A stretch of DNA of 64,000 nucleotides, from assembly GCA_934621605.1 (NCBI GenBank), contig CAKTUZ010000017.1, positions 1,572 to 65,571 of the forward strand. The letters are read 5' to 3'. The notes below the pieces were generated by a model, which ran no database searches, was not told the origin of the DNA, and saw only the letters and a list, made by a program, of their open reading frames with translations. Each line of letters starts with the position of its first letter. The first letter of the stretch is position 1. The translations under genes and the position numbers were made by a program. Shown here piece after piece: positions 14,219-49,945 of this stretch. The stretch is from an uncultured bacterium (lineage in GTDB: Bacteria > Vulcanimicrobiota > Xenobia > Xenobiales > Xenobiaceae).

Positions 14219-14224
14219 TTTTTA

Positions 14225-30764: not shown

Positions 30765-31844
30765 ATGCTAAAAAAAATTTGCGCCATTTTAGTTACTTTT
30801 CTGCTGCTACTATTGAGCAGTGAAGCTTATCTAACTTTTAAAGGCTATGCTCTTCCCGATCCGAATAACTTGGAAGCAGCCCATTTTGATGATGCAGAGT
30901 GCGGTTGGTTACCTACTCCTGGCCATTCTTACTCTAGAGAGGATCCGCAAGCTGCAACTACTGTTGGTACTAACTTTTGCCGCCTTTCCTGCCCTCCGGA
31001 AGAAGCTGCTTGGCTAGCTAAGCAGCGCCAGAAAGCCCTTTTATTGGGCTGCTCCTACACTTTTGGCATGGGCGTAAAAGACGAAGAAACTTTCGGCTGG
31101 TTACTCAATCAAAAGCAACAGCGCTTCTATTTCACTAACGGAGGAGTTATCGGCTATAGCACTTATCAATGCCTAAAGCGCTTAGAAAAATTCTTCCGCC
31201 AAGGAGCCAAGCCGCGCCTAGTCATTTATGCTTTTATAAACGATCATTTAATGCGCAATGTGTCTTGTCGAATTTTTGGCAAAGCGGCCGAAAGTTTCGA
31301 CTTTATCGAAACGCCATACTTTGAAGTGCGCCCCTCTGGTCAGACCATTTTTCACCCGCTGCGCCATTTGGCTTGGCCAGGCGAAAAATATTTACGCACG
31401 GTCAATTTTGCCAATCGCCTTTATGTAAATCGTTTAACTGAACAAACACGCCAAGTAGGCTTTGATAAAGAAGCTTCTCATCAAGTGTATCGCCACTTAG
31501 TGAGCCAAATGGCCGATTTGTGCCATAAAAACGGAGCAGTCTTGGCAATAGTCAGCCTAGATACTTCCAGCAATTGGCTATTTCCCGCACTTTCTTCCGT
31601 CTCTACCGCTTCCAATTCAGCCGCTGTTTCTTCTACCCCAAACTTAACCGACGTTTCCACCTTTACAGCCACTGATAATAATCCGACCGCTACACCGATA
31701 TTGTACTTGGATGCCAACTGTGAAGATCTTTATAAGCCAGAATATCACGTTAAAAACCGACTCGATTTTCACCCTGCTGCCATTGCCCATAACTTTTGGG
31801 CTCAAAAGATAGCTACTTTTATACAAAGTATCGAGCTTCCCTAA
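30765..31844 (+). CDS. secreted SGNH/GDSL-family hydrolase-like protein with S/T-rich insertion
   Basis: Signal peptide. Block I GCSYTFG (catalytic Ser) and C-terminal DFHPAAIAH (DxxH block V). Confidence 0.45.
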   Translation: MLKKICAILVTFLLLLLSSEAYLTFKGYALPDPNNLEAAHFDDAECGWLPTPGHSYSREDPQAATTVGTNFCRLSCPPEEAAWLAKQRQKALLLGCSYTFGMGVKDEETFGWLLNQKQQRFYFTNGGVIGYSTYQCLKRLEKFFRQGAKPRLVIYAFINDHLMRNVSCRIFGKAAESFDFIETPYFEVRPSGQTIFHPLRHLAWPGEKYLRTVNFANRLYVNRLTEQTRQVGFDKEASHQVYRHLVSQMADLCHKNGAVLAIVSLDTSSNWLFPALSSVSTASNSAAVSSTPNLTDVSTFTATDNNPTATPILYLDANCEDLYKPEYHVKNRLDFHPAAIAHNFWAQKIATFIQSIELP

Positions 31845-31947
31845 AACCTTAAAGAGAAAACGGCCCGCCAAGCTCATTTTTACTTAGCAACTTTTGCTAA
31901 GAAACTTGCCCAGTTGGCCGTATCTCTTTAACGATATAAAGCCATCG

Positions 31948-33900: not shown

Positions 33901-34121
33901 AGTAGACAGCAGCTCCGTTTCTTATTGTTTTTCAATCGTAAAGCTTATTTTTTCGTTTTCGCAACGAATAAACCTAGTATTTTTTCTTTTTTGCTTGCTT
34001 AGCAAAGCTTGCTCTAAAGCTTCAACCTGTTCGAGATGTAGCCTACAAGTGTGTGAAGGCTTAGCCATAACCAAGAGCGAAGGGCTGGTATATTTTAATA
34101 TTCGGCAGGCAGGATAAAAAT

Positions 34122-34988
34122 ATGGCAAAGTTTTGTAATAAGTGTGGCGCACAGGTAAGAGAGAATGCCCGTTTCTGCAATATTTGCGGCAATCAGCTTC
34201 GCGTAACGCCAGCGACGCCTTCTCCAGCAGCGCTCCCTCCAACTTCGCCTTCAACACCTCCAACAGCCGCAGCCTCTTCAGCCGTTCCCCCGGTTCCTCA
34301 AACGCCACAATTTTTTCAATCCTACGATTTTGAACCCGGGGGGTCAGCTGCCGGTCGGCCAACAACTGCTTCATCTTATACACCGTCTCCCTCTGCTCCC
34401 CTGCGCGATTCTTCGCGGCCGTTGCCTCCCTTAAGCGATTTCTTCGGTTCCGAAGATAATGAAGAGAGTAACAAACGCGAGTTGGCCGAAGATACTATTA
34501 TGAACTTTTCCCTTTGGGCCGCTGCCATAGTATTGGTACCTATTCCCTTCTGTGACTTAGTTTTGCTCATGCCTATCCAGTCGGCTATGGTAATTGCTGT
34601 AGGCAAAGTTTATGGAGTAAACGAAACTCCAGAGCGCATTTTGGCTATTATCGCCGGTTCTTGCGGTGCCAGCGTCTTCGGCCAACTGACGGCCGTATTT
34701 TTGAGCAATTTGATCCCCATTATCGGGTCCTTAGTCAGTGCTCCCTTTATTTTTGGTTGGACTTACGGCTTGGGCAAAGTAGCTATGCGTTATTTTGAAT
34801 CTAAAGGCCAAGCCAGCGAAAGCGAATTAAAGTCTATTTTCAAACAGGCCAGCAAAGAAGCCAACGGCAAGTACGATCCTACTAAAGTAGGCTCGGCTCA
34901 AGCTTCCTTAGATAATTTGCGTCAATACATGTCGGAAGAAGATTACATAAAGATCAAAGATCGCTTTGGCCCCGAAGCCAAGCGCTAA
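34122..34988 (+). CDS. zinc-ribbon protein with Pro-rich linker and C-terminal DUF697/YcjF-like membrane domain
   Basis: N-terminal CNKCGAQ...CNICGNQ zinc ribbon, P/A/S-rich linker, and hydrophobic C-domain resembling the YcjF/DUF697 family. Confidence 0.5.
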   Translation: MAKFCNKCGAQVRENARFCNICGNQLRVTPATPSPAALPPTSPSTPPTAAASSAVPPVPQTPQFFQSYDFEPGGSAAGRPTTASSYTPSPSAPLRDSSRPLPPLSDFFGSEDNEESNKRELAEDTIMNFSLWAAAIVLVPIPFCDLVLLMPIQSAMVIAVGKVYGVNETPERILAIIAGSCGASVFGQLTAVFLSNLIPIIGSLVSAPFIFGWTYGLGKVAMRYFESKGQASESELKSIFKQASKEANGKYDPTKVGSAQASLDNLRQYMSEEDYIKIKDRFGPEAKR

Positions 34989-35018
34989 TTTGGCAGTTTA
35001 AGTTTAATAACCGCTATT

Positions 35019-35918
35019 TCAAAATTGATTTAAACTCCAATTTGATAAACCTAACTGATAGGCTCCCACCGCGCCGCTGAATTCGCCGCGCTCCAAAATT
35101 ACGGCTCTGTGGTTAAGCAAAACTCCAGCTCGCACCAAAACAGCCCGCAAAACGGGATTGTTACGCAATGTCGAACCGGCATACACTATAGTGTGAGTGC
35201 GACACTGGTTCATAATACCGGCCGCAATTAGAGCGATATTCTCGCCCACCATCCCCATAATACCAGCCATAATATCGGCATCACTAGGTCGCTCGATTTC
35301 ACGGTCTCCGGCCAAACGCCCAAAATTGGAAGCAGTAATATTATCGGCAATACCTACTTGGCCTGGTGGATAAATATCTTTAAGCAACAGGTCAACTCCG
35401 GCTCGTTTGCCTTTTTGAGCCAAAAGGCAAACGTCTTCAAAACTGCTACCAGGAATAAGGGCGCGCCCCAAGCCTAAAATAGTGCCGCCTCCCAAAGCTG
35501 AGCCTCCCACTCGACTGATAGAGAAGCCGTTCACCAGCAGCAGCGAAGTGCCGGTGCCCACCGACCCCAAAAGATAGGGCAACTCTACTCCGCTGGAGCC
35601 AGGCAACAACTTGGAAGCGCCCGCTCCCCAAGCCACAAATTCATTTACACCGAATACTTGCGGAACGTGCGCCTCTGTAGACTCATTGCGTCGACAGCGA
35701 GTACAGTGACGAAACTCAGAAGCACCGCGGCCGGTGACACCGCAAAATTGTACGCCCAAGTTAGTAACATAATCCAACACTTCGTCACAAGTATAATTTT
35801 TTAAAAAAGTAAGCACTAGCTCTTCGCCCGGACGAGCAACGGCTATTTTGGTAAGAGTTCCACCTATATCGAGACCGCAACCGCAAAGATGTTCTAAATC
35901 GTCGGAATATTTGTACAT
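35019..35918 (-). CDS. type II (eukaryotic/Fumble-like) pantothenate kinase
   Basis: GLDIGGTLTKIAV matches the Fumble GLDIGGTLVKL P-loop. ASKHA fold. The start is at the internal ATG preceded by GAGGAA. Confidence 0.55.
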   Translation of the reverse strand: MYKYSDDLEHLCGCGLDIGGTLTKIAVARPGEELVLTFLKNYTCDEVLDYVTNLGVQFCGVTGRGASEFRHCTRCRRNESTEAHVPQVFGVNEFVAWGAGASKLLPGSSGVELPYLLGSVGTGTSLLLVNGFSISRVGGSALGGGTILGLGRALIPGSSFEDVCLLAQKGKRAGVDLLLKDIYPPGQVGIADNITASNFGRLAGDREIERPSDADIMAGIMGMVGENIALIAAGIMNQCRTHTIVYAGSTLRNNPVLRAVLVRAGVLLNHRAVILERGEFSGAVGAYQLGLSNWSLNQF

Positions 35919-36059
35919 TTTTCCTCTATTATTGTAGGAGCCTGAGTGGCAAAAAAAAGCAGCTGCCCGCCCCGACCTTTCCCTCAACCAAGCGAAGAAA
36001 AGACTAAACGCAGCTGCCGTACAACACCGCTAAATCATCTCTAAAACCGGAAATAACGA

Positions 36060-36683
36060 CTAGCGCTGATCTTTTGTCAAAATAGAGTCGATAATGCCGT
36101 AATCGAGAGCTTCCTGACTAGACATGTAATGGTCGCGCTCAGTATCTTCGCAAATTTTTTCATAAGTTTGGCCAGTATGGTTAGCTAAAATACGATTGAG
36201 GTTTTCACGCGTTTTCAAAATTTGTTTAGCGTGAATATCAATATCGGTGGCCTGACCGCCGATCTCCCCAATCCAAGGCTGGTGGATCATAATACGCGAA
36301 TAAGGCAAGGCAAAGCGCTTACCTTTGCAACCGCCAGCTAAAAGCACAGCCGCAGCACTGGCAGCCATACCCATGCAAATGCAAGAAACATCCGGCTTGA
36401 TAAGTTGCATACAATCATACATACCGAGGCCAGCTGTTACCGAACCGCCGGGGCTGTTAATGTAAATATCGATATCTTTATCGGGATCTTCCTGCTCGAG
36501 ATAAAGCAATTGAGCGATAACCAAATTGGCCAGTTCATCGTCAATAGCGTCGCCCACAAAAATAATGCGGTTTTTGAGCAAGCGAGAGTAAATATCGTAA
36601 GCCCGTTCACCGCGAGCGGTTTGCTCAATCACCATAGGAATAAGCTGGGCTCTCTCAATGCCAGGGTATCTGCCAAACATCAT
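36060..36683 (-). CDS. clpP: ATP-dependent Clp protease proteolytic subunit
   Basis: [35 protein letters not shown] (active-site Ser) and MIHQP (His). The start is moved to the internal MMFG. Confidence 0.9.
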
Positions 36684-36853
36684 ATAAACGGAACTCCTTA
36701 AAGAAGGGGGCATAATGGGATTCAGCCTTTCTTAGACCCCTCAAAACAAATATCGCTTGCCAATTCTCGCCAAGCGTAGAACTCCCTCCCCTAGTACAAT
36801 TAACTAGCGCAATTAAACTTTGACGGCTAAAAAAATAATTTACGTATACATAT

Positions 36854-37540
36854 TTAAAGTGTGCTACAACTTGCAAGCGACTCAAGCTTTGAGAGCCATA
36901 AGTTAAATAATGGGCATTGGTTGCGCATTTTATCTATTCCAATAGCTTTAGCGATAACAATTCCTGATGTTGTTTTTCCGTAGCGACCACGAGCCCAACG
37001 CTCCAACCTTTTTGATGGAGCAGTCTGTGGACTATTATTTATTTTTTCAGGAGAACCACATTCTTCAATAACCTTGTCTACTTCTGATTTGTAAATACTC
37101 AAATAACTAGACAAAATTTCACTATCACTAAAAAGCAGTGCCTCAAATTCATGTACTGCCATGAATGGAATAAAGCGTCCCCGTACATTTTTATTTTCAC
37201 ACGCTTCAGCTATGGCTTTTTGCGCAGCGCTATTTAATGTATGGGCTATTTGTTCCGGAGTATCGTGAACTTTTATTTTATCTTTGTCAGGCCACTCGCT
37301 TAAACCGTAATAATCAACAAATGTAGATATAATGGTATTGTTGCGCTGCTTCAAATGGTTGCATATATCCGTCTTAACGCGTTGAAACTTAACATCTCCA
37401 CCCTTTTGCCCTTTCTTAGAAATAATGATAGGGGTCATGTATATACCTTTGACTGCCATATAAGGGGCCAGCACATCATTTATAAACTTTTGCTCGGTCT
37501 GGCCTTCAACTAAAACGACAACTTCCAGAAAGTTACTCAT
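36854..37540 (-). CDS. DUF4276-family protein (Toprim-like), partner of the upstream AAA ATPase
   Basis: MSNFLEVVVLVEGQTEQKFI, an hhhhVEGxTE pattern as in OLD/Toprim. Its ATG overlaps the ATPase stop (ATGAGTAA). Confidence 0.6.
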   Translation of the reverse strand: MSNFLEVVVLVEGQTEQKFINDVLAPYMAVKGIYMTPIIISKKGQKGGDVKFQRVKTDICNHLKQRNNTIISTFVDYYGLSEWPDKDKIKVHDTPEQIAHTLNSAAQKAIAEACENKNVRGRFIPFMAVHEFEALLFSDSEILSSYLSIYKSEVDKVIEECGSPEKINNSPQTAPSKRLERWARGRYGKTTSGIVIAKAIGIDKMRNQCPLFNLWLSKLESLASCSTL

Positions 37541-38618
37541 TGGCGCTGCCTCCCTGAATAACATTTTTAATCCATAATTCACCAACAGAGTAATCTTCAA
37601 GCCAAGCAGTATAATCTCGCTCATTTAGTCTAGCAAACGTAGAAGCTCCATTTTTACGTTTAGCTACAATAATATCTTTTATTGAAAACTGATCTAATAA
37701 AAGTGGAGACTGTGTAGCTAGAATAACCTGCGTATGTGCGGAAGCCAATTTTATAAGTTCTGCCAATATGCCAATAGCTTCTGGATGCAGTCCCAACTCA
37801 GGTTCATCAATAATAATAGTAGCTGGCGGCTGCGGTTGAAGTAAAGCAGTAGCTAAGCAAATAAATCTCATAGAACCGTCAGAAAGTTGGCTTGGCCGCA
37901 TAGGATAATCATTGAGTCCTACTTGTTGCCAGTTTAATCTTATCATTTCATTGAAATTAGGCTTTAAAATGAAATCATAAAAAAACGGCACAACTAGCTG
38001 AACAGCATTAACAATTTGGCTATATTCTACAGGAAACTCGCTTTTCAATCTATACAAAAAAGCAGCGATATTTCCAGCGTCAGCAGCTAGGACTTCGCCA
38101 TGATTTACATCACACTCTCGACGCATAGGAGCGAATTTACTAGTATCGTGGAAGTGATAAATCTTCCAGTTTTTTATAGAATTATAAGTATATTCTGTAG
38201 CCTTTGAACTTAACTCATTCGGTAGCTGAGCGTCATAACTCGGAACAGGAAAATCACGCGTAAAATTCCAGTAACCGTTATTGAAATGCCTTTGTTCTTT
38301 AGTTATAAAAAGATCACCATTTTCACTCGGTATAAAATTGAAATCATAGCCGTTTTTTCCCAACCTGAGTTGAATTTCAATTTTACGTGTCAATTTAGGG
38401 CCGCCGAAGAAGTAAGCGTCAGCAGCTCCAGCCACATATTCAGACAGTCCTTCCGGTTTCATCATAGCCGAAAGAATTTCGAATATTTCCAGGAAGTTGC
38501 TCTTTCCGGCTCCATTGGCTCCAACAATAACGTTAATGTTGCGCAATTCGAAATCGACGAGTTCTCTTATCGACTTAAATCCTCTAACTGTTATTTTATC
38601 CAATTTAGACGGCTTCAT
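37533..38618 (-). CDS. AAA_21/ABC-type ATPase (SMC/RecF-like), first gene of the ATPase+DUF4276 pair
   Basis: Walker A IVGANGAGKSNFLE, signature LSDGSMRF, Walker B IIIDEPELGLHP, H-loop ILATQSP. The start is set at MKPSKLDKI (GGAAGGA RBS 7 nt upstream); the ORF-track start at 38879 runs into the IS end. Confidence 0.7.
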   Translation of the reverse strand: MKPSKLDKITVRGFKSIRELVDFELRNINVIVGANGAGKSNFLEIFEILSAMMKPEGLSEYVAGAADAYFFGGPKLTRKIEIQLRLGKNGYDFNFIPSENGDLFITKEQRHFNNGYWNFTRDFPVPSYDAQLPNELSSKATEYTYNSIKNWKIYHFHDTSKFAPMRRECDVNHGEVLAADAGNIAAFLYRLKSEFPVEYSQIVNAVQLVVPFFYDFILKPNFNEMIRLNWQQVGLNDYPMRPSQLSDGSMRFICLATALLQPQPPATIIIDEPELGLHPEAIGILAELIKLASAHTQVILATQSPLLLDQFSIKDIIVAKRKNGASTFARLNERDYTAWLEDYSVGELWIKNVIQGGSANE

Positions 38619-38698
38619 AAATATAAATCCTTCCAATTGTAGTAGGCGGAAACCCACTGCCTTTAGGCGGTGGGAGGAGCCTTGTAAATTTTTGGACA

Positions 38699-39103
38699 TT
38701 AACCTTGGTTTTCTATGTGTTTTTGTATAGTAACTGATGATACCTCGCCTATACTGCGCATGAAATAACCGTATGACCAAAAGGTTTTCTTTTTCCAATA
38801 TTGTTTGGACAATAAGTTCGGATATTTTTGCCATAAGTAATATGTAGTTTCTTGCTGAATTACTTTTACAATATCGCAAACTCTGTCTACTGCATTATAA
38901 CTTATTAAACAGTGTATATGGTCTTTATCAGCCTCCATTGCTATAACATCATAGCCTCTAAAAGCACAGATGTCATAAAATTTTCGTTTTACGTCGTCAA
39001 CTATAGAACCTGTAAGAAGTTGTTTACGATATTTAGTGACAAGAACTATATGAATTTTTAGGTTATATTTTCGTCTGTTATGACGATTATATTTGTTATC
39101 CAT
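38699..39103 (-). CDS. tnpA: IS200/IS605 Y1 (HUH) transposase TnpA
   Basis: HuH motif HIHCLISY and C-terminal catalytic Tyr region. 134 aa. Confidence 0.85.
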   Translation of the reverse strand: MDNKYNRHNRRKYNLKIHIVLVTKYRKQLLTGSIVDDVKRKFYDICAFRGYDVIAMEADKDHIHCLISYNAVDRVCDIVKVIQQETTYYLWQKYPNLLSKQYWKKKTFWSYGYFMRSIGEVSSVTIQKHIENQG

Positions 39104-39187
39104 GTATTTTCCCTTTAAAGTATTGATTTTAATTAATATATATTATTAAAATATACTTAGTAATATATAAGTGAAAGGAGTACATAT

Positions 39188-40327
39188 ATGAAGCAGATGG
39201 TTGCCACAGCTAAAATCCAAATATCTGTAGATATGGATAGTAAAATTTTGCTTGACGAAACCATGTCTGCCTATTCTGCTGCCTGCAACTATGTTTCTGA
39301 CTATGTATTCCGCACTCACGACTTAAAACAGTTTTCTCTTAACAAAGCTCTATATTCAATACTTCGAGAAAAGTTTAGTCTTAAATCACAAATGGCTCAA
39401 TCTGTTTTAAAAACTGTAATTGCCAGATATAAGACCATTTTGGAAAATCAGAAAAAGTGGATTAAACCGTGTTTCAAGAGGCCACAATATGATCTTGTAT
39501 GGAATAGAGACTATTCTCTTGCTAGGAACTGTTTCTCAGTAAATACACTGAAAGGTCGTATTAAACTGCCATATTTTGCTAAAGGTATGTATAAATATTT
39601 TGACCATACTATTTATAAATTTGGTACTGCCAAGCTTGTAAATAAGTGCGGTAAGTATTTTTTACATATCGCTGTTACTTATGATATTGAAGAAGTTAGA
39701 CTCTATGATATCTGCAACATTGTTGGCATTGATAGAGGTATTAACTTTGTTGTTGCTACTTACGACAGTAAGCACAGATCTGATTTTGTCAATGGCAGAA
39801 TTATAAAACAAAAACGTGCTAACTATTCAAAACTTCGTAAAGAATTACAAATGCGTCAAACTCCGTCGGCAAGACGTAGACTTAAAGCTATTGGTTCACG
39901 AGAAAACCGTTGGATGCAAGATGTTAACCACTGTGTATCAAAGGCACTCGTGAAAGCCAATCCCAAGCATACGTTATTTGTCCTTGAAGACTTGTCAGGC
40001 GTTCGAAATGCCACAGAGCGCGTTAAAACAAAAGATCGCTATGTATCTGTATCGTGGTCATTCTATGACCTTGAACAGAAGCTTATCTACAAAGCTAAAC
40101 AAAATCAATCTATAGTAATTAAGGTTGACCCTCGTTATACAAGCCAGCGTTGTCCGGTGTGTGGGCACATTGAAAAAGCCAATCGCAACAAAAAGACACA
40201 TCTGTTTAGCTGTAAAAGCTGTGGCTACAAATCAAATGATGATCGTGTTGGAGCGATGAATCTGTATCACATGGGGGTAAACTATCTTAGAGATAGTCAA
40301 GTACCTGATACAGTTACAGTAGAGTAA
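39188..40327 (+). CDS. tnpB: IS605-family TnpB (RuvC-like RNA-guided endonuclease)
   Basis: RuvC-I IGIDRG, RuvC-II VLEDLSG, zinc finger CPVCGH...CKSCGY, RuvC-III NDDRVGAMNL. Confidence 0.85.
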   Translation: MKQMVATAKIQISVDMDSKILLDETMSAYSAACNYVSDYVFRTHDLKQFSLNKALYSILREKFSLKSQMAQSVLKTVIARYKTILENQKKWIKPCFKRPQYDLVWNRDYSLARNCFSVNTLKGRIKLPYFAKGMYKYFDHTIYKFGTAKLVNKCGKYFLHIAVTYDIEEVRLYDICNIVGIDRGINFVVATYDSKHRSDFVNGRIIKQKRANYSKLRKELQMRQTPSARRRLKAIGSRENRWMQDVNHCVSKALVKANPKHTLFVLEDLSGVRNATERVKTKDRYVSVSWSFYDLEQKLIYKAKQNQSIVIKVDPRYTSQRCPVCGHIEKANRNKKTHLFSCKSCGYKSNDDRVGAMNLYHMGVNYLRDSQVPDTVTVE

Positions 40328-40480
40328 ATCTCTGCTGTAAAGGGTGTTGTCAACCACCCTACGATGTAACGCCACCTTAGATAGCGATACTTAAGGAATA
40401 AAAGTCGGAGGGGTAACCCGTTACCACGACTGGGCAGTTACAAGCCCATTACCTTTAGGTGATGGGTAGTTGACATCAAC
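40328..40480 (+). ncRNA. candidate TnpB omega-RNA (right-end element RNA) scaffold
   Basis: Structured region between the tnpB stop and the right-end hairpin. The position is expected for an omega-RNA. No covariance test was possible. Confidence 0.3.
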
Positions 40481-40694
40481 AGACACAGCACTAGCAGCTC
40501 CCACATAAATCAGCGCTAGAAATTCTCTTATTCATAGTTTTTTTCCCGCCAAGTTAGTTAGCTACACGTATAGCTAAGCAGCGCTATTAGCACAAATAGC
40601 ACCAAACTAGACATTTTTGGGGCAGGGTAAAAATGATAAGCTGCGGAAAGTGCTCTGCGCCATTTTTCATACAATTGGGAGAGCACTTTTTCTT

Positions 40695-42572
40695 ATGGAT
40701 AGCCAGATTCACAACCAGATCGTAAGTTTTATTTGGAGCGTGGCCGACGATTGTTTGCGCGACGTTTATGTGCGCGGCAAATACCGCGATGTGATTCTGC
40801 CTATGACCGTTATCCGCCGTTTAGATGCTGTTTTGGAAAAGACTAAAGAAGCGATATTAAAAACTAAAAAGCAACTAGACGAGAGACATATAGCCGGACA
40901 GGAACGGGTATTATGTAAAATTGCCGGGCAAGCTTTTTGTAACAGTTCCCCTTTTTGCTTAAAAGATTTAACTTCACGCGCCAAGTCTCAGCAACTTAAA
41001 GCCGACTTTATCGCCTACTTGGACGGCTTCTCTGAAAACGTACAAGAAATACTTAATAAATTTAAGTTCCGCAACCAAATTGACACTATGGTAGAAGCCG
41101 ATATTTTGGGCGCCGTTATTGAAAAGTTTGTTTCCCCTACTATAAATTTAAGTCCCGAGCCGGTTTTAGATGACCTTGGACTGGTAAAAATTCCCGGCCT
41201 AGACAATCACGCTATGGGCACTATTTTTGAAGAGCTGGTGCGCCGTTTTAATGAAGAAAACAACGAAGAAGCCGGCGAACACTGGACTCCTCGCGATGTG
41301 GTGTACCTTATGGCCGATTTGGCCGTTTTGCCGGTAGCCGATAAAATTAAAGATAGTACCTATACTTGTTACGATGGCGCTATGGGTACTGGCGGTATGC
41401 TCACTGTGGCTCAGGAAAGGCTCAGCCAAATTGCTAAGCAAAAGGGCAAGCAAGTGTCTATCCATCTTTATGGCCAAGAAATTAACCCCGAAACTTACGC
41501 TATTGCTATAGCTGATATGATCTTAAAAGGTAAAGGTGAAACTTCACAGGACAACTTTATTTATGGCTCTACCCTTTCCTCTGACGGTTTAGCTGACAAA
41601 ACTTTTGATTTTATGTTATCTAATCCGCCCTATGGCAAATCTTGGAAGACCGACGCCGAAAAGATGGGCGGCAAAAGTGGCATAAAAGATCCGCGTTTTG
41701 TTATTGGCGCCAATGAAGATGAACAACAAGAAGAAGCTGTTGCCAAAAAGAAAAAAGCTAAAAATTCTAATGAATTTAGTATGCTTTCTGCTACTGGCGA
41801 CGGTCAGTTGCTTTTCTTGCTCAACAATATTTCCAAAATGAAAGAAAGTACCGATTTAGGCTCGCGCATTGTGGAAGTTCACAACGGCTCTTCCCTCTTT
41901 ACTGGAGATGCTGGCCAAGGCGAAAGCAACGCTCGCCGCCATATGATTGAGCGCGACTTGGTGGAAGCTATTATCGCTTTACCTGAAGGTATGTTTTACA
42001 ATACTGGTATAGCTACTTTTATTTGGGTACTTTCCAACCGCAAAGAAGAGCGCCGTCGCGGCAAAATTCAGTTAATTGACGCTACCTCTATGAAAGCGCC
42101 GCTGCGTAAGAATTTGGGTAAGAAAAACTGTGAATTTACTCCCGAAATTCGCCAGCAGATTCTCGATTTATATTTCAATATGGAAGAGAACGAGTATTCT
42201 AAGATCTTCCCTAATAGCGAATTTGGCTTTTATAAAGTAGAAGTGCTGCAACCCAAGCTTGATGAACAAGGCCAGCCCTTGCGCGACAAAAAAGGCAACT
42301 TTATTGAAGATAAAGATAAAAAAGATAGCGAAATAATTCCTCTTCGCTATGAAGGCGGCATAGAAGCTTTCTTAGATAAAGAGGTGCGCCCCTTCGCTCC
42401 CTATGCTTACGTAAATGAAGCGGCTACCAAAATTGGCTATAAGCTTAGCTTTACTAAATATTTTTACAAGCCCATTCAGTTGCGCCCCTTAGCGGAAATT
42501 GTAGCCGACATTCGCGCCCTAGAAGCCGAAACGGCCGGCTTATTAGAAGAAATTATCGGCGAGGAGGCTTAA
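40695..42572 (+). CDS. hsdM: type I R-M N6-adenine DNA methyltransferase subunit HsdM
   Basis: HsdM_N-like N-terminus (IWSVADDCLRDV), SAM motif, catalytic LSNPPYG. The start is placed at MDSQIHNQ; the ORF track begins 26 codons earlier. Confidence 0.85.
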   Translation: MDSQIHNQIVSFIWSVADDCLRDVYVRGKYRDVILPMTVIRRLDAVLEKTKEAILKTKKQLDERHIAGQERVLCKIAGQAFCNSSPFCLKDLTSRAKSQQLKADFIAYLDGFSENVQEILNKFKFRNQIDTMVEADILGAVIEKFVSPTINLSPEPVLDDLGLVKIPGLDNHAMGTIFEELVRRFNEENNEEAGEHWTPRDVVYLMADLAVLPVADKIKDSTYTCYDGAMGTGGMLTVAQERLSQIAKQKGKQVSIHLYGQEINPETYAIAIADMILKGKGETSQDNFIYGSTLSSDGLADKTFDFMLSNPPYGKSWKTDAEKMGGKSGIKDPRFVIGANEDEQQEEAVAKKKKAKNSNEFSMLSATGDGQLLFLLNNISKMKESTDLGSRIVEVHNGSSLFTGDAGQGESNARRHMIERDLVEAIIALPEGMFYNTGIATFIWVLSNRKEERRRGKIQLIDATSMKAPLRKNLGKKNCEFTPEIRQQILDLYFNMEENEYSKIFPNSEFGFYKVEVLQPKLDEQGQPLRDKKGNFIEDKDKKDSEIIPLRYEGGIEAFLDKEVRPFAPYAYVNEAATKIGYKLSFTKYFYKPIQLRPLAEIVADIRALEAETAGLLEEIIGEEA

Positions 42573-42576
42573 GCTA

Positions 42577-43992
42577 ATGGCGATGAAGGCTTATAAAAGT
42601 TACAAAAACGTAGATTTACCCTGGCTTAAACGTGTGCCGGAGCATTGGGAAGTAAACAAAATAAATCGCCTTTTTAATCTAATTAGCAGCGGCACAACTC
42701 CCAATTCTGGAAAGATCAACTTTTACGAAAACGGAAATATTCCGTGGCTTAATTCTGGCGATTTATACGGGGATAAACCTTTAATAGAGAAAACAGCAAA
42801 ACATGTAACACAATCAGCACTAAATAGTTTTTCAACATTAAAACTCTACAGTGCTAACTCAATTGCTATAGCAATGTATGGAGCCTCAGTCGGCAATATA
42901 TCTATAGTTCCATTTGAATTTTGTTGCAACCAAGCTTGTTGCGTTTTTTCTAAGCCAATTAAAAATTTAAATTTAAAATATGTATATTATAGTGTTATTG
43001 CAGGCAAGAAAGACCTCATTGAACAAGCTAGAGGAGGCGGGCAACCTAATATAAACCAGGACATACTGAAGCAATTTCGTTTGCCTTTTCCTCCTTTTCA
43101 CGAACAAGAGCAAATTGTGCGCTATTTGGATTGGCAAAATTCACGCTTAAACAAGCTGATCAACGCCAAGAAAAAAGAAATTGCCTTACTGGAAGAGCAA
43201 AAGCAAGCTTTAATTAGCCAAGCCGTAACTAAAGGCTTAGATCCCCACGCCCCCCTAAAAGACAGCGCCATAGACTGGATCGGCCAAATACCTGAGCATT
43301 GGCAAATCAACAAAATGAATCGCCTCTTTAATTTAATTGGCAGCGGCACAACTCCCAGTTCTGGTAGCATTGATTTTTATAATAACGGAAACATTCCGTG
43401 GCTTAATTCTGGCGATTTATACGGTGACAAACCTGTAATAAAAAAGACAGCAAAACATATTACAGAACTAGCATTAAATAGTTTTTCAACATTAAAACTT
43501 TACAATGCTGACTCAATTGCTATAGCAATGTATGGAGCCTCAGTCGGCAATATATCTATAGTTCCATTTGAATTTTGTTGCAACCAAGCATGCTGTGTTT
43601 TTTCTAAGCCAATTAAGAATTTAAGTTTGAAGTATGTATATTACAACGTTATTGCAGGTAAAAAAGACCTTATTGAGCAAGCTAAGGGAGGTGGACAACC
43701 TAACATAAATCAAGACATACTCAGACAGTTTCGCCTGCCTTTCCCTCCTCTTCACGAGCAAGAACACATTGTTGACTATTTAACTGATCAATGTGCCATT
43801 ATTGATGATTTAATTGCAAATATAAATAAAACAATATCCTTCCTTCAAGAATACCGCACCCGCCTAGTGGCCGATGTTGTCACCGGCCAAATCGACGTGC
43901 GCAACATTGCTATTCCCAACTACGAAACCGTAACCGAAACCATCGACCAACCCGAAACCACCGAAGACGAAACCAACACCACGGAGGAGTAA
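42577..43992 (+). CDS. hsdS: type I R-M specificity subunit HsdS with two near-identical TRDs
   Basis: Two ~165-aa blocks (VPEHWEVNKINRLFNLISSGTTP... and IPEHWQINKMNRLFNLIGSGTTP...) are ~90% identical and separated by a coiled-coil spacer. It follows hsdM by 4 nt. Confidence 0.85.
   Translation: MAMKAYKSYKNVDLPWLKRVPEHWEVNKINRLFNLISSGTTPNSGKINFYENGNIPWLNSGDLYGDKPLIEKTAKHVTQSALNSFSTLKLYSANSIAIAMYGASVGNISIVPFEFCCNQACCVFSKPIKNLNLKYVYYSVIAGKKDLIEQARGGGQPNINQDILKQFRLPFPPFHEQEQIVRYLDWQNSRLNKLINAKKKEIALLEEQKQALISQAVTKGLDPHAPLKDSAIDWIGQIPEHWQINKMNRLFNLIGSGTTPSSGSIDFYNNGNIPWLNSGDLYGDKPVIKKTAKHITELALNSFSTLKLYNADSIAIAMYGASVGNISIVPFEFCCNQACCVFSKPIKNLSLKYVYYNVIAGKKDLIEQAKGGGQPNINQDILRQFRLPFPPLHEQEHIVDYLTDQCAIIDDLIANINKTISFLQEYRTRLVADVVTGQIDVRNIAIPNYETVTETIDQPETTEDETNTTEE
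42630..43780 (+). repeat. internal tandem duplication (about 42633-43120 and 43289-43777) = duplicated TRD of hsdS
   Basis: Direct nucleotide-level repeat of ~490 bp. It is visible as a near-identical protein repeat in the ORF translation. Confidence 0.8.
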
Positions 43993-43995
43993 CCA

Positions 43996-45729
43996 ATGAC
44001 AGATAATCAACCAACTTCTACTGAAGAAAAGCCAGGCGGCTACATTGAAAGTATCACTTTTAACAATGGACAGGAACTTAAGTTAAATAAAAATGATATA
44101 GTTGTGCTAGTTGGGCCAAACAATGCCGGTAAAAGTCAAGTCATAAGGGATATTTATATTTTGGCCAAGAGTGATAAAAATGATATTCAAACAAGCAATA
44201 TTGTAGTGTCAAATATATTTGTACATAAAAATAATGTGTCAATAGAACCTATTATTAATAGAACTTTTTCTAAAGACAAGTATGGAAATCAGATACGATC
44301 TGATTTCAAAGGTAATACAGAATCATTTGGAATGTACATTAGCGATTCATTTTATCGTAATAATTTTCCGGAAAGTTTCGGAATATTTGGAGATACATTT
44401 GTTATAAATTTAGATACTTGGCATAGATTACAAACATGTCATCCAGCAGAGAATACGACGAAAGATGAAGTAAAAACCCACCCGATACAATATATAACTT
44501 TCGATTCCTCTTCCAGATCTAAATTGTCGGAGATTTTTAAACGTGCATTTAAAACTGGTCTGATACCGTATCCCCAATATGGCTCACGTATTCCTTTATG
44601 CATAGGTGAACCTATAAAACTTTCTGACGAATATAACGATGAGCAAGAACGTCTAGAAGCGTATGCCAGTAAATTAGCAACATATCCTCAAGTCCAAAAT
44701 CAGGGAGATGGTATAAAAAGTTTTGTCAGCATACTATTATACTTAATACTTGATCATTATTGCGTATACTTAATTGATGAACCAGAAGCTTTTCTTCATC
44801 CACCACAAGCTCATATTATGGGGCAAATTATTGGAGATACATTGTCAGAGCAACAACAAGCTTTTATAGCCACCCATAGTGAAGAAGTAATTAAAGGACT
44901 TTTAGAAAAATGTCCAAGGCGTGTAAAAGTTATACGCATAACTAGGGAAAATAATAGCAATCATTTTGCAATACTTAACAATGAAGATTTACAAAAAGTT
45001 TGGAATGACCCACTTTTAAAATATTCAAACATAATGTCCAGTCTGTTTTATCAACAAATCGTGCTTTGTGAGAGTGAATCAGATTGCAAGATGTATTCAA
45101 TCATAGACGGACATCTAAAGGAACAGCAAGGCAAGTATTCAGAGACTTTGTTTATACACTGTAACGGAAAGAATAAACTTCCAGATATAGCCAAAGCTTT
45201 ATGCGCTCTAGGCGTAAAATTATACGTTATAGCTGATATAGATATACTTAAGAATGAAAATTTGATTAAAAAGCTTGTCAGTAACTTTAAAGCCGACTGG
45301 GAACAAATCAGTAAATCTTACAAAGTTTTTTCTTCCAGTATAGAAAGCCAAAAAAAAGATTTAAACAGAACAATTCTTCAACAGCAGATAGAAAAGATAT
45401 TACGTTCTTCAAATAGTGCAACTATAAACAATCAAGATGTACAAAAACTCCAAAAACTTCTAAAAATTTCATCTGGATGGGACGAATTAAAGGAAAATGG
45501 CGAACAATCTATTCCTCGTGGTGATGCAACTTCAAGCTACAGAAACCTAATAAAATTCCTACAAGCAGCGGGTATCTTTATAGTTCCAGTTGGTGAACTT
45601 GAAAATTTTGTAAAAGAAGTAGGCGGACATGGCCCCAGTTGGGTCGACACAGTTTTACATGACTATCCAGATTTAACTGATCCAGTTTACAACACAATAA
45701 AGGATTTCATTCAAAGCATGAACTTATAA
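43996..45729 (+). CDS. OLD/PARIS-like ATP-dependent nuclease: N-terminal ABC/AAA_21 ATPase fused to C-terminal Toprim-like domain, embedded between hsdS and hsdR
   Basis: Walker A VVLVGPNNAGKSQV, Walker B/D-loop YLIDEPEAFLHPP, H-loop IATHSEE. C-terminal QQIVLCESESDCKMY and KLYVIADIDIL fit Toprim E...DxD. It starts 4 nt after the hsdS stop and ends 18 nt before hsdR. Confidence 0.7.
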   Translation: MTDNQPTSTEEKPGGYIESITFNNGQELKLNKNDIVVLVGPNNAGKSQVIRDIYILAKSDKNDIQTSNIVVSNIFVHKNNVSIEPIINRTFSKDKYGNQIRSDFKGNTESFGMYISDSFYRNNFPESFGIFGDTFVINLDTWHRLQTCHPAENTTKDEVKTHPIQYITFDSSSRSKLSEIFKRAFKTGLIPYPQYGSRIPLCIGEPIKLSDEYNDEQERLEAYASKLATYPQVQNQGDGIKSFVSILLYLILDHYCVYLIDEPEAFLHPPQAHIMGQIIGDTLSEQQQAFIATHSEEVIKGLLEKCPRRVKVIRITRENNSNHFAILNNEDLQKVWNDPLLKYSNIMSSLFYQQIVLCESESDCKMYSIIDGHLKEQQGKYSETLFIHCNGKNKLPDIAKALCALGVKLYVIADIDILKNENLIKKLVSNFKADWEQISKSYKVFSSSIESQKKDLNRTILQQQIEKILRSSNSATINNQDVQKLQKLLKISSGWDELKENGEQSIPRGDATSSYRNLIKFLQAAGIFIVPVGELENFVKEVGGHGPSWVDTVLHDYPDLTDPVYNTIKDFIQSMNL

Positions 45730-45747
45730 AGGATATCAATAAAAGCT

Positions 45748-48678
45748 ATGCCAACCAATGTGACGGAAAAAAGTTTAGAAGACATTATTGTTAATTACTT
45801 AGTGCAAAATAATGGCTATGAACAAGGCGTTAATGCCGATTATAATCGGGAATACGCTATAGACGAAAAGCGCCTTTTTCGTTTTTTGCAAGCAACTCAG
45901 CCTAAGGAAATGCTAAAACTGGGGCTGCCTGGTAATGATTTGCGGCGCACTAAATTTTTTAACCGTTTGCAAAGTGAAATTATTAAACGCGGCATTGTGG
46001 ACGTTTTGCGTAAAGGCATAAAAGACGGCCCTACCCATTTGGATTTATTCTACCTTACGCCTTCAGAAAAAAATATTCAGGCCCAGGAACATTTTCAGCA
46101 AAATATTTTTAGCGTTATTCGCCAGCTACAATACTCGCCGACGGCTGCCCGCTGTGCTTTAGATTTGGCTCTTTTTATTAACGGTTTGCCTATTCTCACT
46201 TGTGAATTAAGAAATACTCTTTCCGGCCAAAATGTAGAAGACGCTGTTGAGCAATATAAAACCGATCGCAACCCTCGGGAAGCTATCTTCCAATTTAAAC
46301 GCTGCCTCGTCCATTTTGCTATTGACGATCAGCAAGTAAAATTCTGCACTAAACTAAACGACAAAAAGTCTTGGTTCCTCCCCTTCAATAAAGGCTTTAA
46401 TGACGGCGCAGGCAATCCGCCTAATCCTAGCGGTATCAAAACTGATTACATGTGGAAAGATATTTTCACTAAAAATCAGCTTACCAATATTATCGAAAAT
46501 TATGCTCAAGTTGTCGATAAAGGCAGTAAACAAATCTTCCCCCGCTACCACCAATTGGCGGTAGTAAATGCTTTACTTAAAGACGTCCAAGAAAAAGGCG
46601 TCGGCCAGCGCTATCTAATTCAACATAGCGCCGGTAGCGGCAAATCTAATTCTATTGCTTGGTTGGCCCATCAATTGATCGGACTAGAAAAAGACGGCCA
46701 AAATATCATCGATTCGGTAGTTGTGGTTACCGATAGGCGCAACTTAGATGATCAAATAAAAAATACCATTAAACAATTTACCGAAGTACGCAGCACCGTA
46801 GTTCACGCCGATCATTCCAACGATTTGCGCCAAGCTATCGACTCTGGCAAAAAAATTATTATTACTACTATCCAAAAATTTCCTTACATTTTGGAAAGCT
46901 TGGGCACCGAACACAAAGGGCGCAAGTTTGCCATTATTATCGACGAAGCCCACTCCAGCCAAAGCGGTCGCACTGCGGCCAAAATGAATACTGCCCTTTC
47001 CGGCCAGTACGATCCTGACGACGCTAAAAGTACCGAAGACTTAATCAATGAAGCCATCGAAGGGCGCAAAATGCTCACTAACGCCAGCTATTTCGCCTTT
47101 ACAGCTACGCCCAAAAACAAAACTTTAGAAATGTTCGGTAAAGCTGCTATTGAGCCCGACGGCAGCGTGCGCCATTTTCCTTTCCACAACTACCCCATGA
47201 AGCAAGCCATTCAAGAAGGCTTTATTATGGACGTTTTGCAATACTATACGCCCATTTCCAGCTACTACAAATTGGCCAAAATTGTAGAAAACGATCCCCT
47301 TTTTGACAAAAAGAAAGCTCAAGCCAAATTGCGCAGTTTTGTGGAAAGCAACCATTTTGCCATTAGCCAAAAGGCAGCCATGATGATAGAACACTTCCAC
47401 ACTCAAGTAATTGGCCAAAATAAAATTGGCGGTCAAGCTCGAGCTATGGTAGTTACTGGCAGCATTTTGCGAGCTATCGACTACTTCTACGCCTTCCAAA
47501 AGTGCTTGGCCGAAAGGAAAAGCCCTTATAAAGCTATCGTCGCTTTTTCTGGTGAAAAAGAATATGACGGCCAAATTTGCACGGAAGCCAGCCTCAACGG
47601 TTTTCCCAGCAGCCAAATTCCCGATAAATTTAAGGAAGATCCCTATCGCTTTTTAATTGTGGCTAATAAATTCCAAACTGGTTTTGACGAGCCGCTTTTG
47701 CATACTATGTATGTAGACAAACAACTAAGCGACATAAAAGCCGTACAAACGCTTTCCCGCTTAAATAGAGCTCATCCGCAAAAATTTGATACTTTTGTGC
47801 TCGATTTTGCTAACGATGCCAAAACCATAGAAGAAGCTTTTTCCGCTTACTATCGCACGACCATTCTTTCCGGAGAAACCGATCCTAATAAGCTTAACGA
47901 CTTGGTCTGCGAAATGGAAAATCACCAAGTTTACACCCAAAGCCAAATAAATTTGCTGGTAGACTTGTATTTACATAAAGCCAACCGCAACCAGCTTGAT
48001 CCTATTTTGGATAATTGTGCCGCCAACTACAAAGACTTAGACAGAGAAGATCAAGTAAAATTTAAGAGTGCCGCCAAATCATTTGTCAGGACTTACAGTT
48101 TTTTAGGAGCTATTATGCCATACGGCAGCCCTGAGTGGGAAAAGCTCTCTATTTTCTTAACTTTACTTTTACCCAAGTTGCCAGCGCCTTTAGAAGACGA
48201 TCTTACTGCCGGTATTTTGCAAGCTATAGACTTAGATAGTTACAGGATCCAGGCCCAAAGCATGATGTCTATCCGCCTAGAAGACGCCAACGCCGAAATA
48301 AATCCAGTTCCAGTAGGCCAAGCCATGCAACCTAAAGAAGCTGAACTAGATCCTTTAACAGCCATTTTAGACGAATTTAACAGCTTTTTTGGCAATATCG
48401 ATTGGCAAGACAAAGACAACATAAAGCAACAGATCTCCACTTTGCCTCAAGCTGTAGCTCAAAACCAAAACTACAAAAATGCGGCCAAAAATTCCGATAA
48501 AGAAAATGCCAAAATGGAAAGTGACAAAGCCTTAGATGAAGCTATATTGGCTAGGTTTAGCGACTGGTACGAACTATTTGACCAGTTCCAAAGCAATGCC
48601 AGCTTCAAAGAATGGCTCAGCAACATGGTATTTAAAGCTACCTACGGCAAACTAAGAGGCAACCGCCCATATTGCTAA
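45748..48678 (+). CDS. hsdR: type I restriction endonuclease subunit HsdR
   Basis: N-terminal nuclease domain, helicase motifs I QHSAGSGKSNSI and II IIIDEAHSSQ (DEAH), plus motifs III-VI. 976 aa. Confidence 0.85.
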   Translation: MPTNVTEKSLEDIIVNYLVQNNGYEQGVNADYNREYAIDEKRLFRFLQATQPKEMLKLGLPGNDLRRTKFFNRLQSEIIKRGIVDVLRKGIKDGPTHLDLFYLTPSEKNIQAQEHFQQNIFSVIRQLQYSPTAARCALDLALFINGLPILTCELRNTLSGQNVEDAVEQYKTDRNPREAIFQFKRCLVHFAIDDQQVKFCTKLNDKKSWFLPFNKGFNDGAGNPPNPSGIKTDYMWKDIFTKNQLTNIIENYAQVVDKGSKQIFPRYHQLAVVNALLKDVQEKGVGQRYLIQHSAGSGKSNSIAWLAHQLIGLEKDGQNIIDSVVVVTDRRNLDDQIKNTIKQFTEVRSTVVHADHSNDLRQAIDSGKKIIITTIQKFPYILESLGTEHKGRKFAIIIDEAHSSQSGRTAAKMNTALSGQYDPDDAKSTEDLINEAIEGRKMLTNASYFAFTATPKNKTLEMFGKAAIEPDGSVRHFPFHNYPMKQAIQEGFIMDVLQYYTPISSYYKLAKIVENDPLFDKKKAQAKLRSFVESNHFAISQKAAMMIEHFHTQVIGQNKIGGQARAMVVTGSILRAIDYFYAFQKCLAERKSPYKAIVAFSGEKEYDGQICTEASLNGFPSSQIPDKFKEDPYRFLIVANKFQTGFDEPLLHTMYVDKQLSDIKAVQTLSRLNRAHPQKFDTFVLDFANDAKTIEEAFSAYYRTTILSGETDPNKLNDLVCEMENHQVYTQSQINLLVDLYLHKANRNQLDPILDNCAANYKDLDREDQVKFKSAAKSFVRTYSFLGAIMPYGSPEWEKLSIFLTLLLPKLPAPLEDDLTAGILQAIDLDSYRIQAQSMMSIRLEDANAEINPVPVGQAMQPKEAELDPLTAILDEFNSFFGNIDWQDKDNIKQQISTLPQAVAQNQNYKNAAKNSDKENAKMESDKALDEAILARFSDWYELFDQFQSNASFKEWLSNMVFKATYGKLRGNRPYC

Positions 48679-48791
48679 GTGCCATACTGCCGCCAAACGT
48701 TACTAACGTAGCGCCAACAATACTGCCGCCGCAGCTATGCTTTAAGGCTGCTAAGCGCTACACAACTTTTTTAATTACACCATCCCCTATT

Positions 48792-48828
48792 TTAATTTAG
48801 TCATTTTAGCTTTAAATGACTAAATTAA
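48792..48828. promoter_or_regulatory. perfect 15-bp inverted repeat (7-nt spacer) operator-like site upstream of fic, plus a third half-site at 48838-48848
   Basis: TTAATTTAGTCATTT-tagcttt-AAATGACTAAATTAA. It lies 50-90 nt upstream of the fic start. Confidence 0.5.
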
Positions 48829-48880: not shown

Positions 48881-49945
48881 ATGCGGTGCGAAAGTATGCC
48901 TAATTATAACTTTGAAAATAACTATAAAGCCTTGTTGCAACCGGATATTGTCTCTTTATTGCTAACTATTCGCGAATACAAGGGAGAGCAAAATCTATTT
49001 ATTGAGGCTCAAAGCGATACTTTAGCTAAATTGGTCGAAGTTGCCAAAATTCAAAGTACGGAAGCTTCCAATAAAATTGAGGGCATTTACACTGCCAACG
49101 AGCGTTTGCAAGAGCTTATGGCCGAAAAAACTGCTCCTAAAACGCGCAGCGAACAAGAGATCGCCGGCTATCGAGACGTGCTTAACACTATCCACGAAAG
49201 TCACGATTATATACCAATTAAACCTTCTATCTTGCTGCAATTGCACCGCGACTTATACAAATTTTCCGCTAGTATTGGCGGAACTTTTAAAGCTGTCGAT
49301 AACCAAATCGCTGAAATAGACAGCCAAGGCAATAAAAAACCACGCTTCCAACCGGTGGCCGCTTGGGAAACTGCTGAAAATATAGAAACTCTGTGCGCTT
49401 CTTTCAATAGCGCTTTGCAAAATAGCCAGCTCGATCCCTTGCTTTTAATTCCTATGTTTATTTTGGATTTTCTTTGCATCCATCCTTTCCAAGATGGCAA
49501 TGGACGTATGAGCCGCTTGCTGACGCTGCTTTTATTGTACCGCGCCGGTTATATTGTGGGAAAATATATAAGTATTGAAAAACTGATTGAGCAAAGCAAA
49601 GAAACCTACTACGAAAGCTTAAAAGCCAGCTCTGTCGGTTGGCATGATGGCCAAAATGATTATGCTCCTTTTGTGCGCTATATGCTGGGAGTTATAGTAG
49701 CAGCTTATAAAGAATTCGCTTCGCGAGTGAAAATTTTAACTGTTAGCAACTTAACTAAAGTCGAACGTCTGGAAGCAGTTATTAAAGCTCACCTCGGCCC
49801 CATAACTAAAGCTGAGCTAGTGAAAAAATGTCCAGATATAAGCCAAACTACCATTCAGCGCACTTTGGCTGAATTGCTTAAAGCCAACAAAATACACAAA
49901 CTTGGCGGCGGCCGTTATACTGCTTATGTGTGGTGTCATAACTAA
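48881..49945 (+). CDS. fic: class II Fic-domain protein (AMPylase-type) with N-terminal inhibitory helix and C-terminal winged-helix domain
   Basis: Fic motif HPFQDGNGRMSRLL. Inhibitory motif SNKIEG ((S/T)xxxE(G/N)) upstream. HTH-like C-terminus. Confidence 0.8.
   Translation: MRCESMPNYNFENNYKALLQPDIVSLLLTIREYKGEQNLFIEAQSDTLAKLVEVAKIQSTEASNKIEGIYTANERLQELMAEKTAPKTRSEQEIAGYRDVLNTIHESHDYIPIKPSILLQLHRDLYKFSASIGGTFKAVDNQIAEIDSQGNKKPRFQPVAAWETAENIETLCASFNSALQNSQLDPLLLIPMFILDFLCIHPFQDGNGRMSRLLTLLLLYRAGYIVGKYISIEKLIEQSKETYYESLKASSVGWHDGQNDYAPFVRYMLGVIVAAYKEFASRVKILTVSNLTKVERLEAVIKAHLGPITKAELVKKCPDISQTTIQRTLAELLKANKIHKLGGGRYTAYVWCHN

Follow-up and report, generated by a model that had tools for sequence, protein, structure and literature searches.

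A HEC-01-type ATPase–DUF4276 candidate defence pair in an uncultured Vulcanimicrobiota bacterium, with an IS200/IS605 end at its start codon

This study concerns two overlapping genes, encoding an ATP-binding cassette (ABC) ATPase and a DUF4276 protein, in a 64,000-nucleotide (nt) stretch of contig CAKTUZ010000017.1 (assembly GCA_934621605.1, positions 1,572 to 65,571), hereafter the window, from an uncultured Vulcanimicrobiota gut bacterium (Candidatus Bruticola). Judged by profile matches, the pair is an ordinary, intact instance of the catalogued candidate defence system HEC-01, because both proteins match the HEC-01A and HEC-01B models along their full length. Base composition and strain comparisons place it in a variable, horizontally acquired island, and the reading that we favour, with moderate confidence, is that it functions in phage defence as a HEC-01-type module in which a coupled ABC-ATPase sensor controls a Toprim-like nuclease effector. 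The conserved end of an IS200/IS605-family insertion sequence (IS) abuts the ATPase start codon, and the 5′ untranslated region (UTR) native to the gene is, by alignment, gone. The pair and its junction comprise the following features:

38618..37533, minus strand: ATPase gene, HEC-01A; ATG at 38618, TAA at 37535..37533; 361 amino acids (aa).
37540..36854, minus strand: DUF4276 gene, HEC-01B; ATG at 37540, stop at 36856..36854; 228 aa; putative metal-dependent nuclease effector.
37540..37533, minus strand: ATPase/DUF4276 overlap of 8 nt, ATGAGTAA; the DUF4276 start falls within the final codons and stop codon of the ATPase gene.
37554..37549, minus strand: Shine-Dalgarno (SD)-like GGGAGG for DUF4276, inside the ATPase coding sequence (at its conserved C-terminal GG motif), 8 nt upstream of the ATG.

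A first-pass annotation of this DNA had described a two-gene ABC-ATPase plus nuclease candidate defence module, and the literature classes the pair likewise (HEC-01, bioRxiv 10.1101/2024.01.29.577857; DUF4276-Toprim, PMC12065111). PADLOC, which that annotation had proposed running, labels the pair HEC-01: the ATPase matches HEC-01A (PDLC04175; 4.2e-132, 438.6 bits) with residues 1-357 against profile positions 1-361 of 363, the DUF4276 protein matches HEC-01B (PDLC04188; 1.1e-74) with residues 5-223 against positions 13-227 of 230, and the genes are adjacent as the system demands, both on the minus strand with the 8-nt overlap. HEC-01 is listed in PADLOC-DB v2, and Payne et al., who count it among nine "Hma-embedded candidates", describe an ABC ATPase whose TOPRIM-like partner has a metal site in common with Burkholderia pseudomallei OLD (bioRxiv 10.1101/2024.01.29.577857). 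The window has the same architecture, with the ABC ATPase first and the TOPRIM-like DUF4276 protein second, but its copy lies outside any Hma or Type III-like locus and near a Type I restriction-modification (R-M) system, with the IS between them. The statement that the function of such pairs is uncharacterised is out of date: PADLOC names the pair, two phage tests have been published, and the related Mad3 and Mad4 are needed in the methylation-associated defence system (MADS).

The junction between the two genes is a conserved property of the family. The 8-nt overlap, given correctly by the first annotation, recurs as the same 8 nt, in the form ATGA[G/A]T[AA/GA/AG], in 81 of 86 homologous pairs from other genomes and across phyla, and so exceeds chance. 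GGxGG is found at the equivalent spot upstream of homologous junctions, and the retention of both overlap and internal SD bears out the translational coupling that had been proposed for these genes, as far as sequence conservation can indicate it. At every locus with sequence available, the ATPase gene lies directly upstream of DUF4276 on the same strand. One locus, from Candidatus Electrothrix aarhusensis (L063, 8747-10687), encodes ATPase and DUF4276 in a single continuous open reading frame (ORF), owing to a 1-nt difference at the usual 8-nt junction that represents either a natural fusion or an assembly indel. A coupled junction kept throughout the family argues for a stoichiometric complex.

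The ATPase carries the hallmarks of its class with one departure. Its length had been given as 362 aa, which is correct as a count of codons including the stop and one too many for the protein. The Walker A motif GANGAGKS (residues 33-40) and the signature LSDGSMRF (residues 245-252) are present as described and are joined by a Walker B/D-loop, IIIDEPELGLHP, at residues 268-279, so that Walker A, an LSGG-like signature, Walker B and D-loop are all accounted for; these motifs are intact and every residue invariant in the family is kept. Pfam AAA_21 matches at 1.1e-31 over all of its positions (1-304 of 304). The H-loop histidine of ABC ATPases is missing: position 303 (window 37710-37712) is Gln in the context ATQSP, as in 74 of 75 HEC-01A homologues, whereas a fused OLD-like protein encoded elsewhere in the window retains the His (ATHSEE). 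The Gln suggests slow hydrolysis and ATP-dependent clamping. The predicted structure (pLDDT, or predicted local distance difference test, 93.6) is a compact ABC head with no coiled coil, and in structure comparison AriA (16.7), GajA (16.2) and Thermus scotoductus OLD (15.0) all score below the heads of SMC, Rad50 and PtuA; as modelled, the ATPase head is structurally closer to SMC/Rad50/PtuA than to OLD/AriA. Sequence searches for a close solved structure of either this ATPase or that of the fused protein gave motif-level matches only. The ATPase had also been likened to the head of the fused gene at 43996, and while the fused architecture of that gene holds, the likeness extends no further than shared ABC motifs (29% identity over 119 aa, pairwise E 4e-07).

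The DUF4276 protein is confirmed at 228 aa, begins MSNFLEVVVLVEGQTEQKF and bears the motif VVVLVEGQTEQKF at residues 7-19. Pfam DUF4276 is its sole Pfam match (1.3e-56, profile 1-192 of 192). Invariant residues include E12, E16, D76, R122, E131, E133, E165 and K189; the window copy has every family-invariant residue in an intact ORF. A model built from 45 homologues (pLDDT 90.3) predicts an alpha/beta fold of three layers in which, as in Toprim domains, strand 1 is followed by a conserved Glu. Both E12 and E16 come after this strand, strand 3 (69-76) ends in D76, and E131 and E133, which may be the remaining metal ligands, come after strand 4; in the model the invariant acidic residues would thus be located where Toprim enzymes bind metal. 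The predicted fold most resembles the Toprim and adjoining helical region of OLD nucleases, and the OLD-like family of the window has a parallel acidic pattern (E19/D23, D74xD76, E194xE196). The Menshen paper places DUF4276 in the Toprim superfamily and equates it with Mad4 (PMC12065111). Residues ~161-202 (window ~36935-37060; INNSPxTAPSKRL) show a non-significant likeness (E 0.25) to the DSK-motif region of RNase HII.

Several observations weigh against a Toprim-like nuclease acting in phage defence. D76 is invariant in 77 of 77 sequences, but in this clade the motif reads D-Y-Y where the Toprim canon is DxD. A Foldseek search of the PDB with the DUF4276 model returned nothing below E 0.01, with AriB at E 0.034 and probability 0.2, and the DUF4276 sequence profile found nothing relevant in the PDB, its one match being the non-significant RNase HII segment (E 0.25). 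The profile-profile comparison with OLD-Toprim that had been called for gave no link, hhalign returning a probability of 0.4% against the OLD C-terminus of the window both as a single sequence and as a 28-sequence profile. When introduced into Escherichia coli MG1655, HEC-01 gave no protection from any phage tested (bioRxiv 10.1101/2024.01.29.577857). No phage-borne copy was found in 50,697 phage records, so that the pair, unlike PARIS, is not phage- or satellite-borne, and a promoter and terminator scan around the pair did no better than on shuffled sequence. A tie of DUF4276 to Toprim, OLD or AriB at the level of sequence was dropped in view of the negative PDB-profile and hhalign results. 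Because Foldseek, PDB profile and hhalign all fail to link the families and DxD reads D-Y-Y, the Toprim assignment is structural and of moderate strength; the proposal of a Toprim/OLD-type nuclease thus draws support from the predicted fold and the invariant acidic residues and none from sequence comparison. As to the phage tests, a later study reported that a cold-seep HEC-01 protected E. coli B from at least one of T4, T5 and T7, and the published tests therefore conflict, with none in one study and some protection in the other.

Membership in PARIS, OLD, MADS and AbiL was examined with Pfam, PADLOC and NCBIfam, and the pair belongs to none of them by their own definitions. The earlier label "split OLD/PARIS-like" does not hold as membership by sequence, given the lack of any AriB/DUF4435 or PF20469 match and the hhalign result. 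PARIS is triggered by Ocr and cleaves tRNA. The window effector is DUF4276 and not the DUF4435 of AriB, which is absent from the 12 PADLOC matches of the DUF4276 protein; the window ATPase has 361 aa where AriA has ~460; and the lack of phage-borne copies is a further difference. The PARIS Nature paper does place DUF4276 among the partners in its AAA15/21 tree. Compared with the OLD family (P2 Old, the B. pseudomallei and T. scotoductus OLD proteins, and GajA of Gabija), the pair is split into two genes, has D-Y-Y for DxD and an H-loop Gln for the His of the fused protein in the window, and PF20469 (OLD-like Toprim) finds no match in the DUF4276 protein. It is analogous to PARIS and OLD and a member of neither. 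Mad3/Mad4 of MADS (Pseudomonas aeruginosa SMC4386) are likewise an ABC ATPase and DUF4276 pair, and deletion of mad3 or mad4 abolishes MADS phage defence (bioRxiv 10.1101/2023.03.30.534895). The window ATPase matches PADLOC mad3 at 4.1e-27 and has MAD3 as its top NCBIfam match, but it scores 104.5 bits against the cut-off of 420 for the Mad3 equivalog NF047739, and the mandatory partners Mad6-8 are not in the neighbourhood, which holds clpP, IS genes and the Type I R-M; the only MADS-type matches near the pair are generic ones of mad2/mad5 to hsdM/hsdS. AbiLi matches the ATPase at 2.9e-22, and the DUF4276 protein matches neither AbiLii nor RloB. PrrC and RloC are also ABC-type ATPase-linked effectors genetically tied to R-M, but HEC-01 has no anticodon-nuclease domain and the window pair lies outside the R-M operon.

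The 5′ side of the pair is occupied by the insertion sequence, whose features are these:

38619..40479: IS200/IS605-family element with tnpA, tnpB and hairpins; homology to locus L093 ends at 40476.
38699-39103, minus strand: tnpA (Y1 transposase); Pfam Y1_Tnp 3.8e-30.
39188-40327, plus strand: tnpB; OrfB_IS605 and Cas12f1-like_TNB.
38650-38674 and 40442-40466, same orientation: subterminal hairpins, direct-repeat family D6, bracketing only tnpA-tnpB.
38614..38618, plus strand: conserved TTCAT at the left end of the IS (its terminus or target); read on the opposite strand as ATGAA, it comprises the ATPase start codon and the next two bases.
38634..38628, minus strand: IS-borne SD GGAAGGA, at correct spacing to serve the ATPase gene now.

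The hairpin of this IS, whose family is widespread in gut metagenomes, occurs in more than 120 metagenome contigs. Alignment of 122 hairpin-bearing loci gives the IS end as TTCAT-AAATAAATCCTTTC..., with flanks diverging immediately 5′ of TTCAT, and contig break points at 38642/3 (k=31) and 38667/8 put the repeat boundary near 38613/4, in agreement with the alignment. The element had been placed 20 nt upstream of the ATPase gene; its conserved end instead abuts the ATG itself. Because it does, no native 5′ UTR of the ATPase gene is left, and the apparent SD is IS sequence. Among related IS copies from gut metagenomes, an ORF of 100 codons or more opens at that ATG in 22 of 39 distinct flanks, compared with 19% for ATGAA control sites (p = 2.7e-07); it seems that members of this IS family lie on start codons and take the place of the 5′ UTR. 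An Rfam scan of the region for a TnpB guide RNA or other RNA returned only three tRNAs elsewhere in the window. The possibility that HEC-01 is cargo inside the IS, prompted by a 97.4% identical block in locus L093 that extends from the stop of DUF4276 as far as the distal end of the IS, was rejected because the hairpins bracket only tnpA-tnpB and the conserved IS end stops at TTCAT.

Such an insertion might have silenced the pair in this strain, or left it decaying, for want of the promoter and native 5′ UTR that the IS would have removed. The abutting IS end and the lack of a convincing promoter between tnpA and the ATPase gene agree with such a loss. Yet neither ORF is disrupted and no family-invariant residue has been lost, an SD at the correct spacing comes with the IS end, at least 22 other genes that look intact have the same IS family at their start codon, and identity between lineages is 97.4% for the block of IS and pair against 87.4% for the flanks; we consider silencing improbable. 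Moreover, tnpA and the ATPase gene are on the same strand with only a hairpin lacking a T-run between them, and the ATPase gene is probably transcribed by read-through from tnpA. That the pair is now under IS-derived expression signals and that the block spreads as a unit is, taken together, a possibility that we put forward tentatively.

The surroundings of the pair were compared with those in related strains. The neighbouring features are as follows:

36713..36060, minus strand: clpP (CLP_protease 1.2e-81), 140 nt downstream of the DUF4276 gene.
40695..48678, plus strand: Type I R-M (PADLOC MTase_I 5.9e-228, Specificity_I 3e-150, REase_I 4.1e-46).
40695-42572, 42577-43992 and 45748-48678, plus strand: hsdM, hsdS and hsdR of this Type I R-M.
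43996-45729, plus strand: fused ABC ATPase-OLD Toprim gene (AAA_21/AAA_15 and PF20469 at 1e-05; best PADLOC match "Old", 4.4e-24).
48881..49945, plus strand: Fic-domain gene, SoFic-like (Pfam Fic 9.5e-14; PADLOC SoFic 1.3e-37), closing the low-GC island.

The pair had been described as lying right after clpP; the two are indeed adjacent on the same strand, with clpP downstream of the pair. GC content is 0.33-0.43 between ~36.8 and 49 kb against ~0.47 in the flanks, and this low-GC stretch holds, in order, HEC-01, the IS200/IS605 element, the Type I R-M with the embedded OLD-like gene and the SoFic-like Fic gene. The pair is transcribed divergently from the R-M, with the IS between them. The OLD-like gene lies between hsdS and hsdR, the position that prrC takes in Type I R-M systems. 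The two halves of hsdS, at 42637-42936 and 43291-43590, form a 300-nt direct repeat of 88% DNA identity, which implies two near-identical target-recognition domains and probably a palindromic recognition site. A second Type I R-M (56425-62510, minus strand) consists of hsdM (61284-62510), an embedded RhuM-family gene (60589-61287), a half-size hsdS (59516-60163) and hsdR (56425-59496), and adjoins a tRNA array in which three tandem tRNA-Asn(GTT) genes (63133-63375, plus strand) repeat with an 84-nt period, units 1 and 2 being identical.

A penicillin-binding protein encoded in the window groups with proteins named Candidatus Bruticola/UBP9. The locus from a Hadza gut metagenome-assembled genome (L011) is the same as that of the window. 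A sister strain (L002) has the same R-M and Fic genes, with hsdM 99.4%, hsdR 96.3% and Fic 99.7% identical in aa sequence and 95-98% nucleotide identity to window 40545-50411 in the Type I R-M and Fic genes, except that hsdS is only 42% identical. It lacks the IS and has no OLD-like gene between hsdS and hsdR, and its HEC-01 allele differs from that of the window (72%/77% aa) and sits on the other side of the R-M, between Fic and an M23 peptidase gene. The third locus, L093, from another Bruticola lineage, has the window's allele and IS beside clpP and an SLH-domain gene in place of the R-M. Its block of IS and HEC-01 (5201-8826, against window 36851-40476) is 97.4% identical, whereas the flanking core genes (10167-15317, against window 31704-36840) are 87.4% identical; this difference suggests that the block was recently exchanged and that it seems to move as one unit. 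Between its DUF4276 and clpP genes L093 also contains two small unannotated genes, of 109 and 133 aa, that the window lacks. With a different HEC-01 allele and position in L002 and no R-M in L093, the locus is, on this comparison, a hot spot of cassette turnover, at which HEC-01 has been placed beside this R-M at least twice and can persist without it as well.

Across the family, neighbours were surveyed at 80 species-level genome loci together with loci from metagenomes. Most have no homologue among the neighbours of other loci (48 of 67 upstream, 48 of 71 downstream), and the only recurrent ones are Type III-like methylases upstream (10/67), Res-type helicase-nucleases downstream (12-13/71) and Type I subunits. 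In at least 10 loci the pair is flanked by Type III-like mod on one side and res on the other, Type I R-M subunits recur beside it in seven, and in L051 and L055 it lies between hsdM and hsdS; altogether R-M loci of Type I or Type III contain or adjoin about one quarter of the surveyed pairs. Housekeeping genes (RuvC, aconitase, RecA, tRNA synthetase) are frequent among the other neighbours, none of them consistently so. Plasmid copies number 13 in 72,556 plasmid records, one of which, an 11-kb mobilisable Acinetobacter plasmid, has the pair beside VapBC with no R-M. Three Planctomycetota loci (L065, L082 and L089) have the pair directly downstream of ruvC, a lineage-specific conserved position.

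This linkage raises the question of whether the pair is a non-autonomous accessory nuclease module of the neighbouring R-M, as Mad3/Mad4 are in MADS. In that role it would join the R-M translocase in cleaving unmodified invader DNA, or serve as a back-up that comes into action once R-M is inhibited. The quarter of pairs found between or beside R-M genes, mod-res and hsdM-hsdS included, would fit such a role, as would the retention of HEC-01 beside the same Type I R-M, with different alleles and positions, in both the window and L002. From the literature come the requirement for mad3 and mad4 in MADS, where mad5 can be deleted only if mad2 or mad3 is removed (bioRxiv 10.1101/2023.03.30.534895), and the proposal that OLD-ABC modules are back-up effectors of BREX/R-M. 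Most pairs, however, have unrelated and often housekeeping neighbours, the same allele occurs in L093 without a neighbouring Type I R-M, the window pair is divergent from its R-M with the IS between, the small Acinetobacter plasmid has no R-M, and stand-alone HEC-01 gave some protection in E. coli B. An accessory role of this kind is unlikely in our estimation, though the least unlikely of the alternatives considered here.

The same solo occurrences bear on the idea that the pair is a selfish addiction or stabilisation cassette, similar to a toxin-antitoxin (TA) system, in which the ATPase neutralises a toxic nuclease and loss kills the cell, with no dedicated anti-phage role. Pfam labels AAA_21 a "putative AbiEii toxin, Type IV TA system", TA pairs typically show the same close coupling and constant gene order, the pair is found as a solo cassette in unrelated contexts and on a small mobilisable plasmid beside VapBC, and the published phage tests disagree. 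Against this, it is rare on plasmids, and recurrent embedding in R-M operons together with the requirement for Mad3/Mad4 in defence points to immunity; nor are TA behaviour and abortive-infection defence mutually exclusive. We judge pure addiction, like silencing, to have little likelihood. Some database records call the ATPase "recombinase RecF", and this name and the three Planctomycetota loci with the pair after ruvC would suit a housekeeping role in DNA repair or recombination, similar to that of RecF (an ABC ATPase) with RecR (a Toprim protein). The patchy distribution and variable context of the pair, its GC content below that of the flanks, its variation in presence, allele and position between sister strains, the 28.8 bits scored with the NCBIfam recF model against a cut-off of 172, and its embedding in R-M systems make this explanation very improbable.

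We return, then, to a HEC-01-type defence module, for which the following mode of action may be envisaged. The native 5′ region having been replaced by the IS end with its SD, transcription would come by read-through from tnpA, and the coupled junction would lead to ATPase and DUF4276 protein being made in fixed proportion and forming a complex. The ATPase would act as a sensor or switch, its Gln H-loop giving slow hydrolysis and ATP-dependent clamping, and would hold the nuclease in check. In response to a cue from the phage, which might be an anti-restriction protein or a nucleoprotein structure, the ATPase would license the DUF4276 nuclease to cut nucleic acid, and the cutting would block the phage directly or stop growth of the cell.

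Since PADLOC labels the pair HEC-01 automatically and the DUF4276-Toprim assignment has already been published, the value of these findings as a discovery is small; what is new here is the conserved 8-nt overlap, the H-loop Gln, the R-M linkage of about one quarter of pairs, the allele difference between sister strains and the IS at the start codon. The last of these may bear on the site choice of IS200/IS605 (TnpB) elements and their effects on neighbouring genes. The coupled junction, the Gln H-loop, which would fit a slow-hydrolysing switch, the invariant acidic residues and the strain comparisons of cassette turnover should be useful for work on the mechanism of HEC-01 or Mad3/Mad4. HEC-01 may guard R-M systems against anti-restriction proteins, which would explain the presence of two different alleles flanking the same Type I R-M in sister strains.

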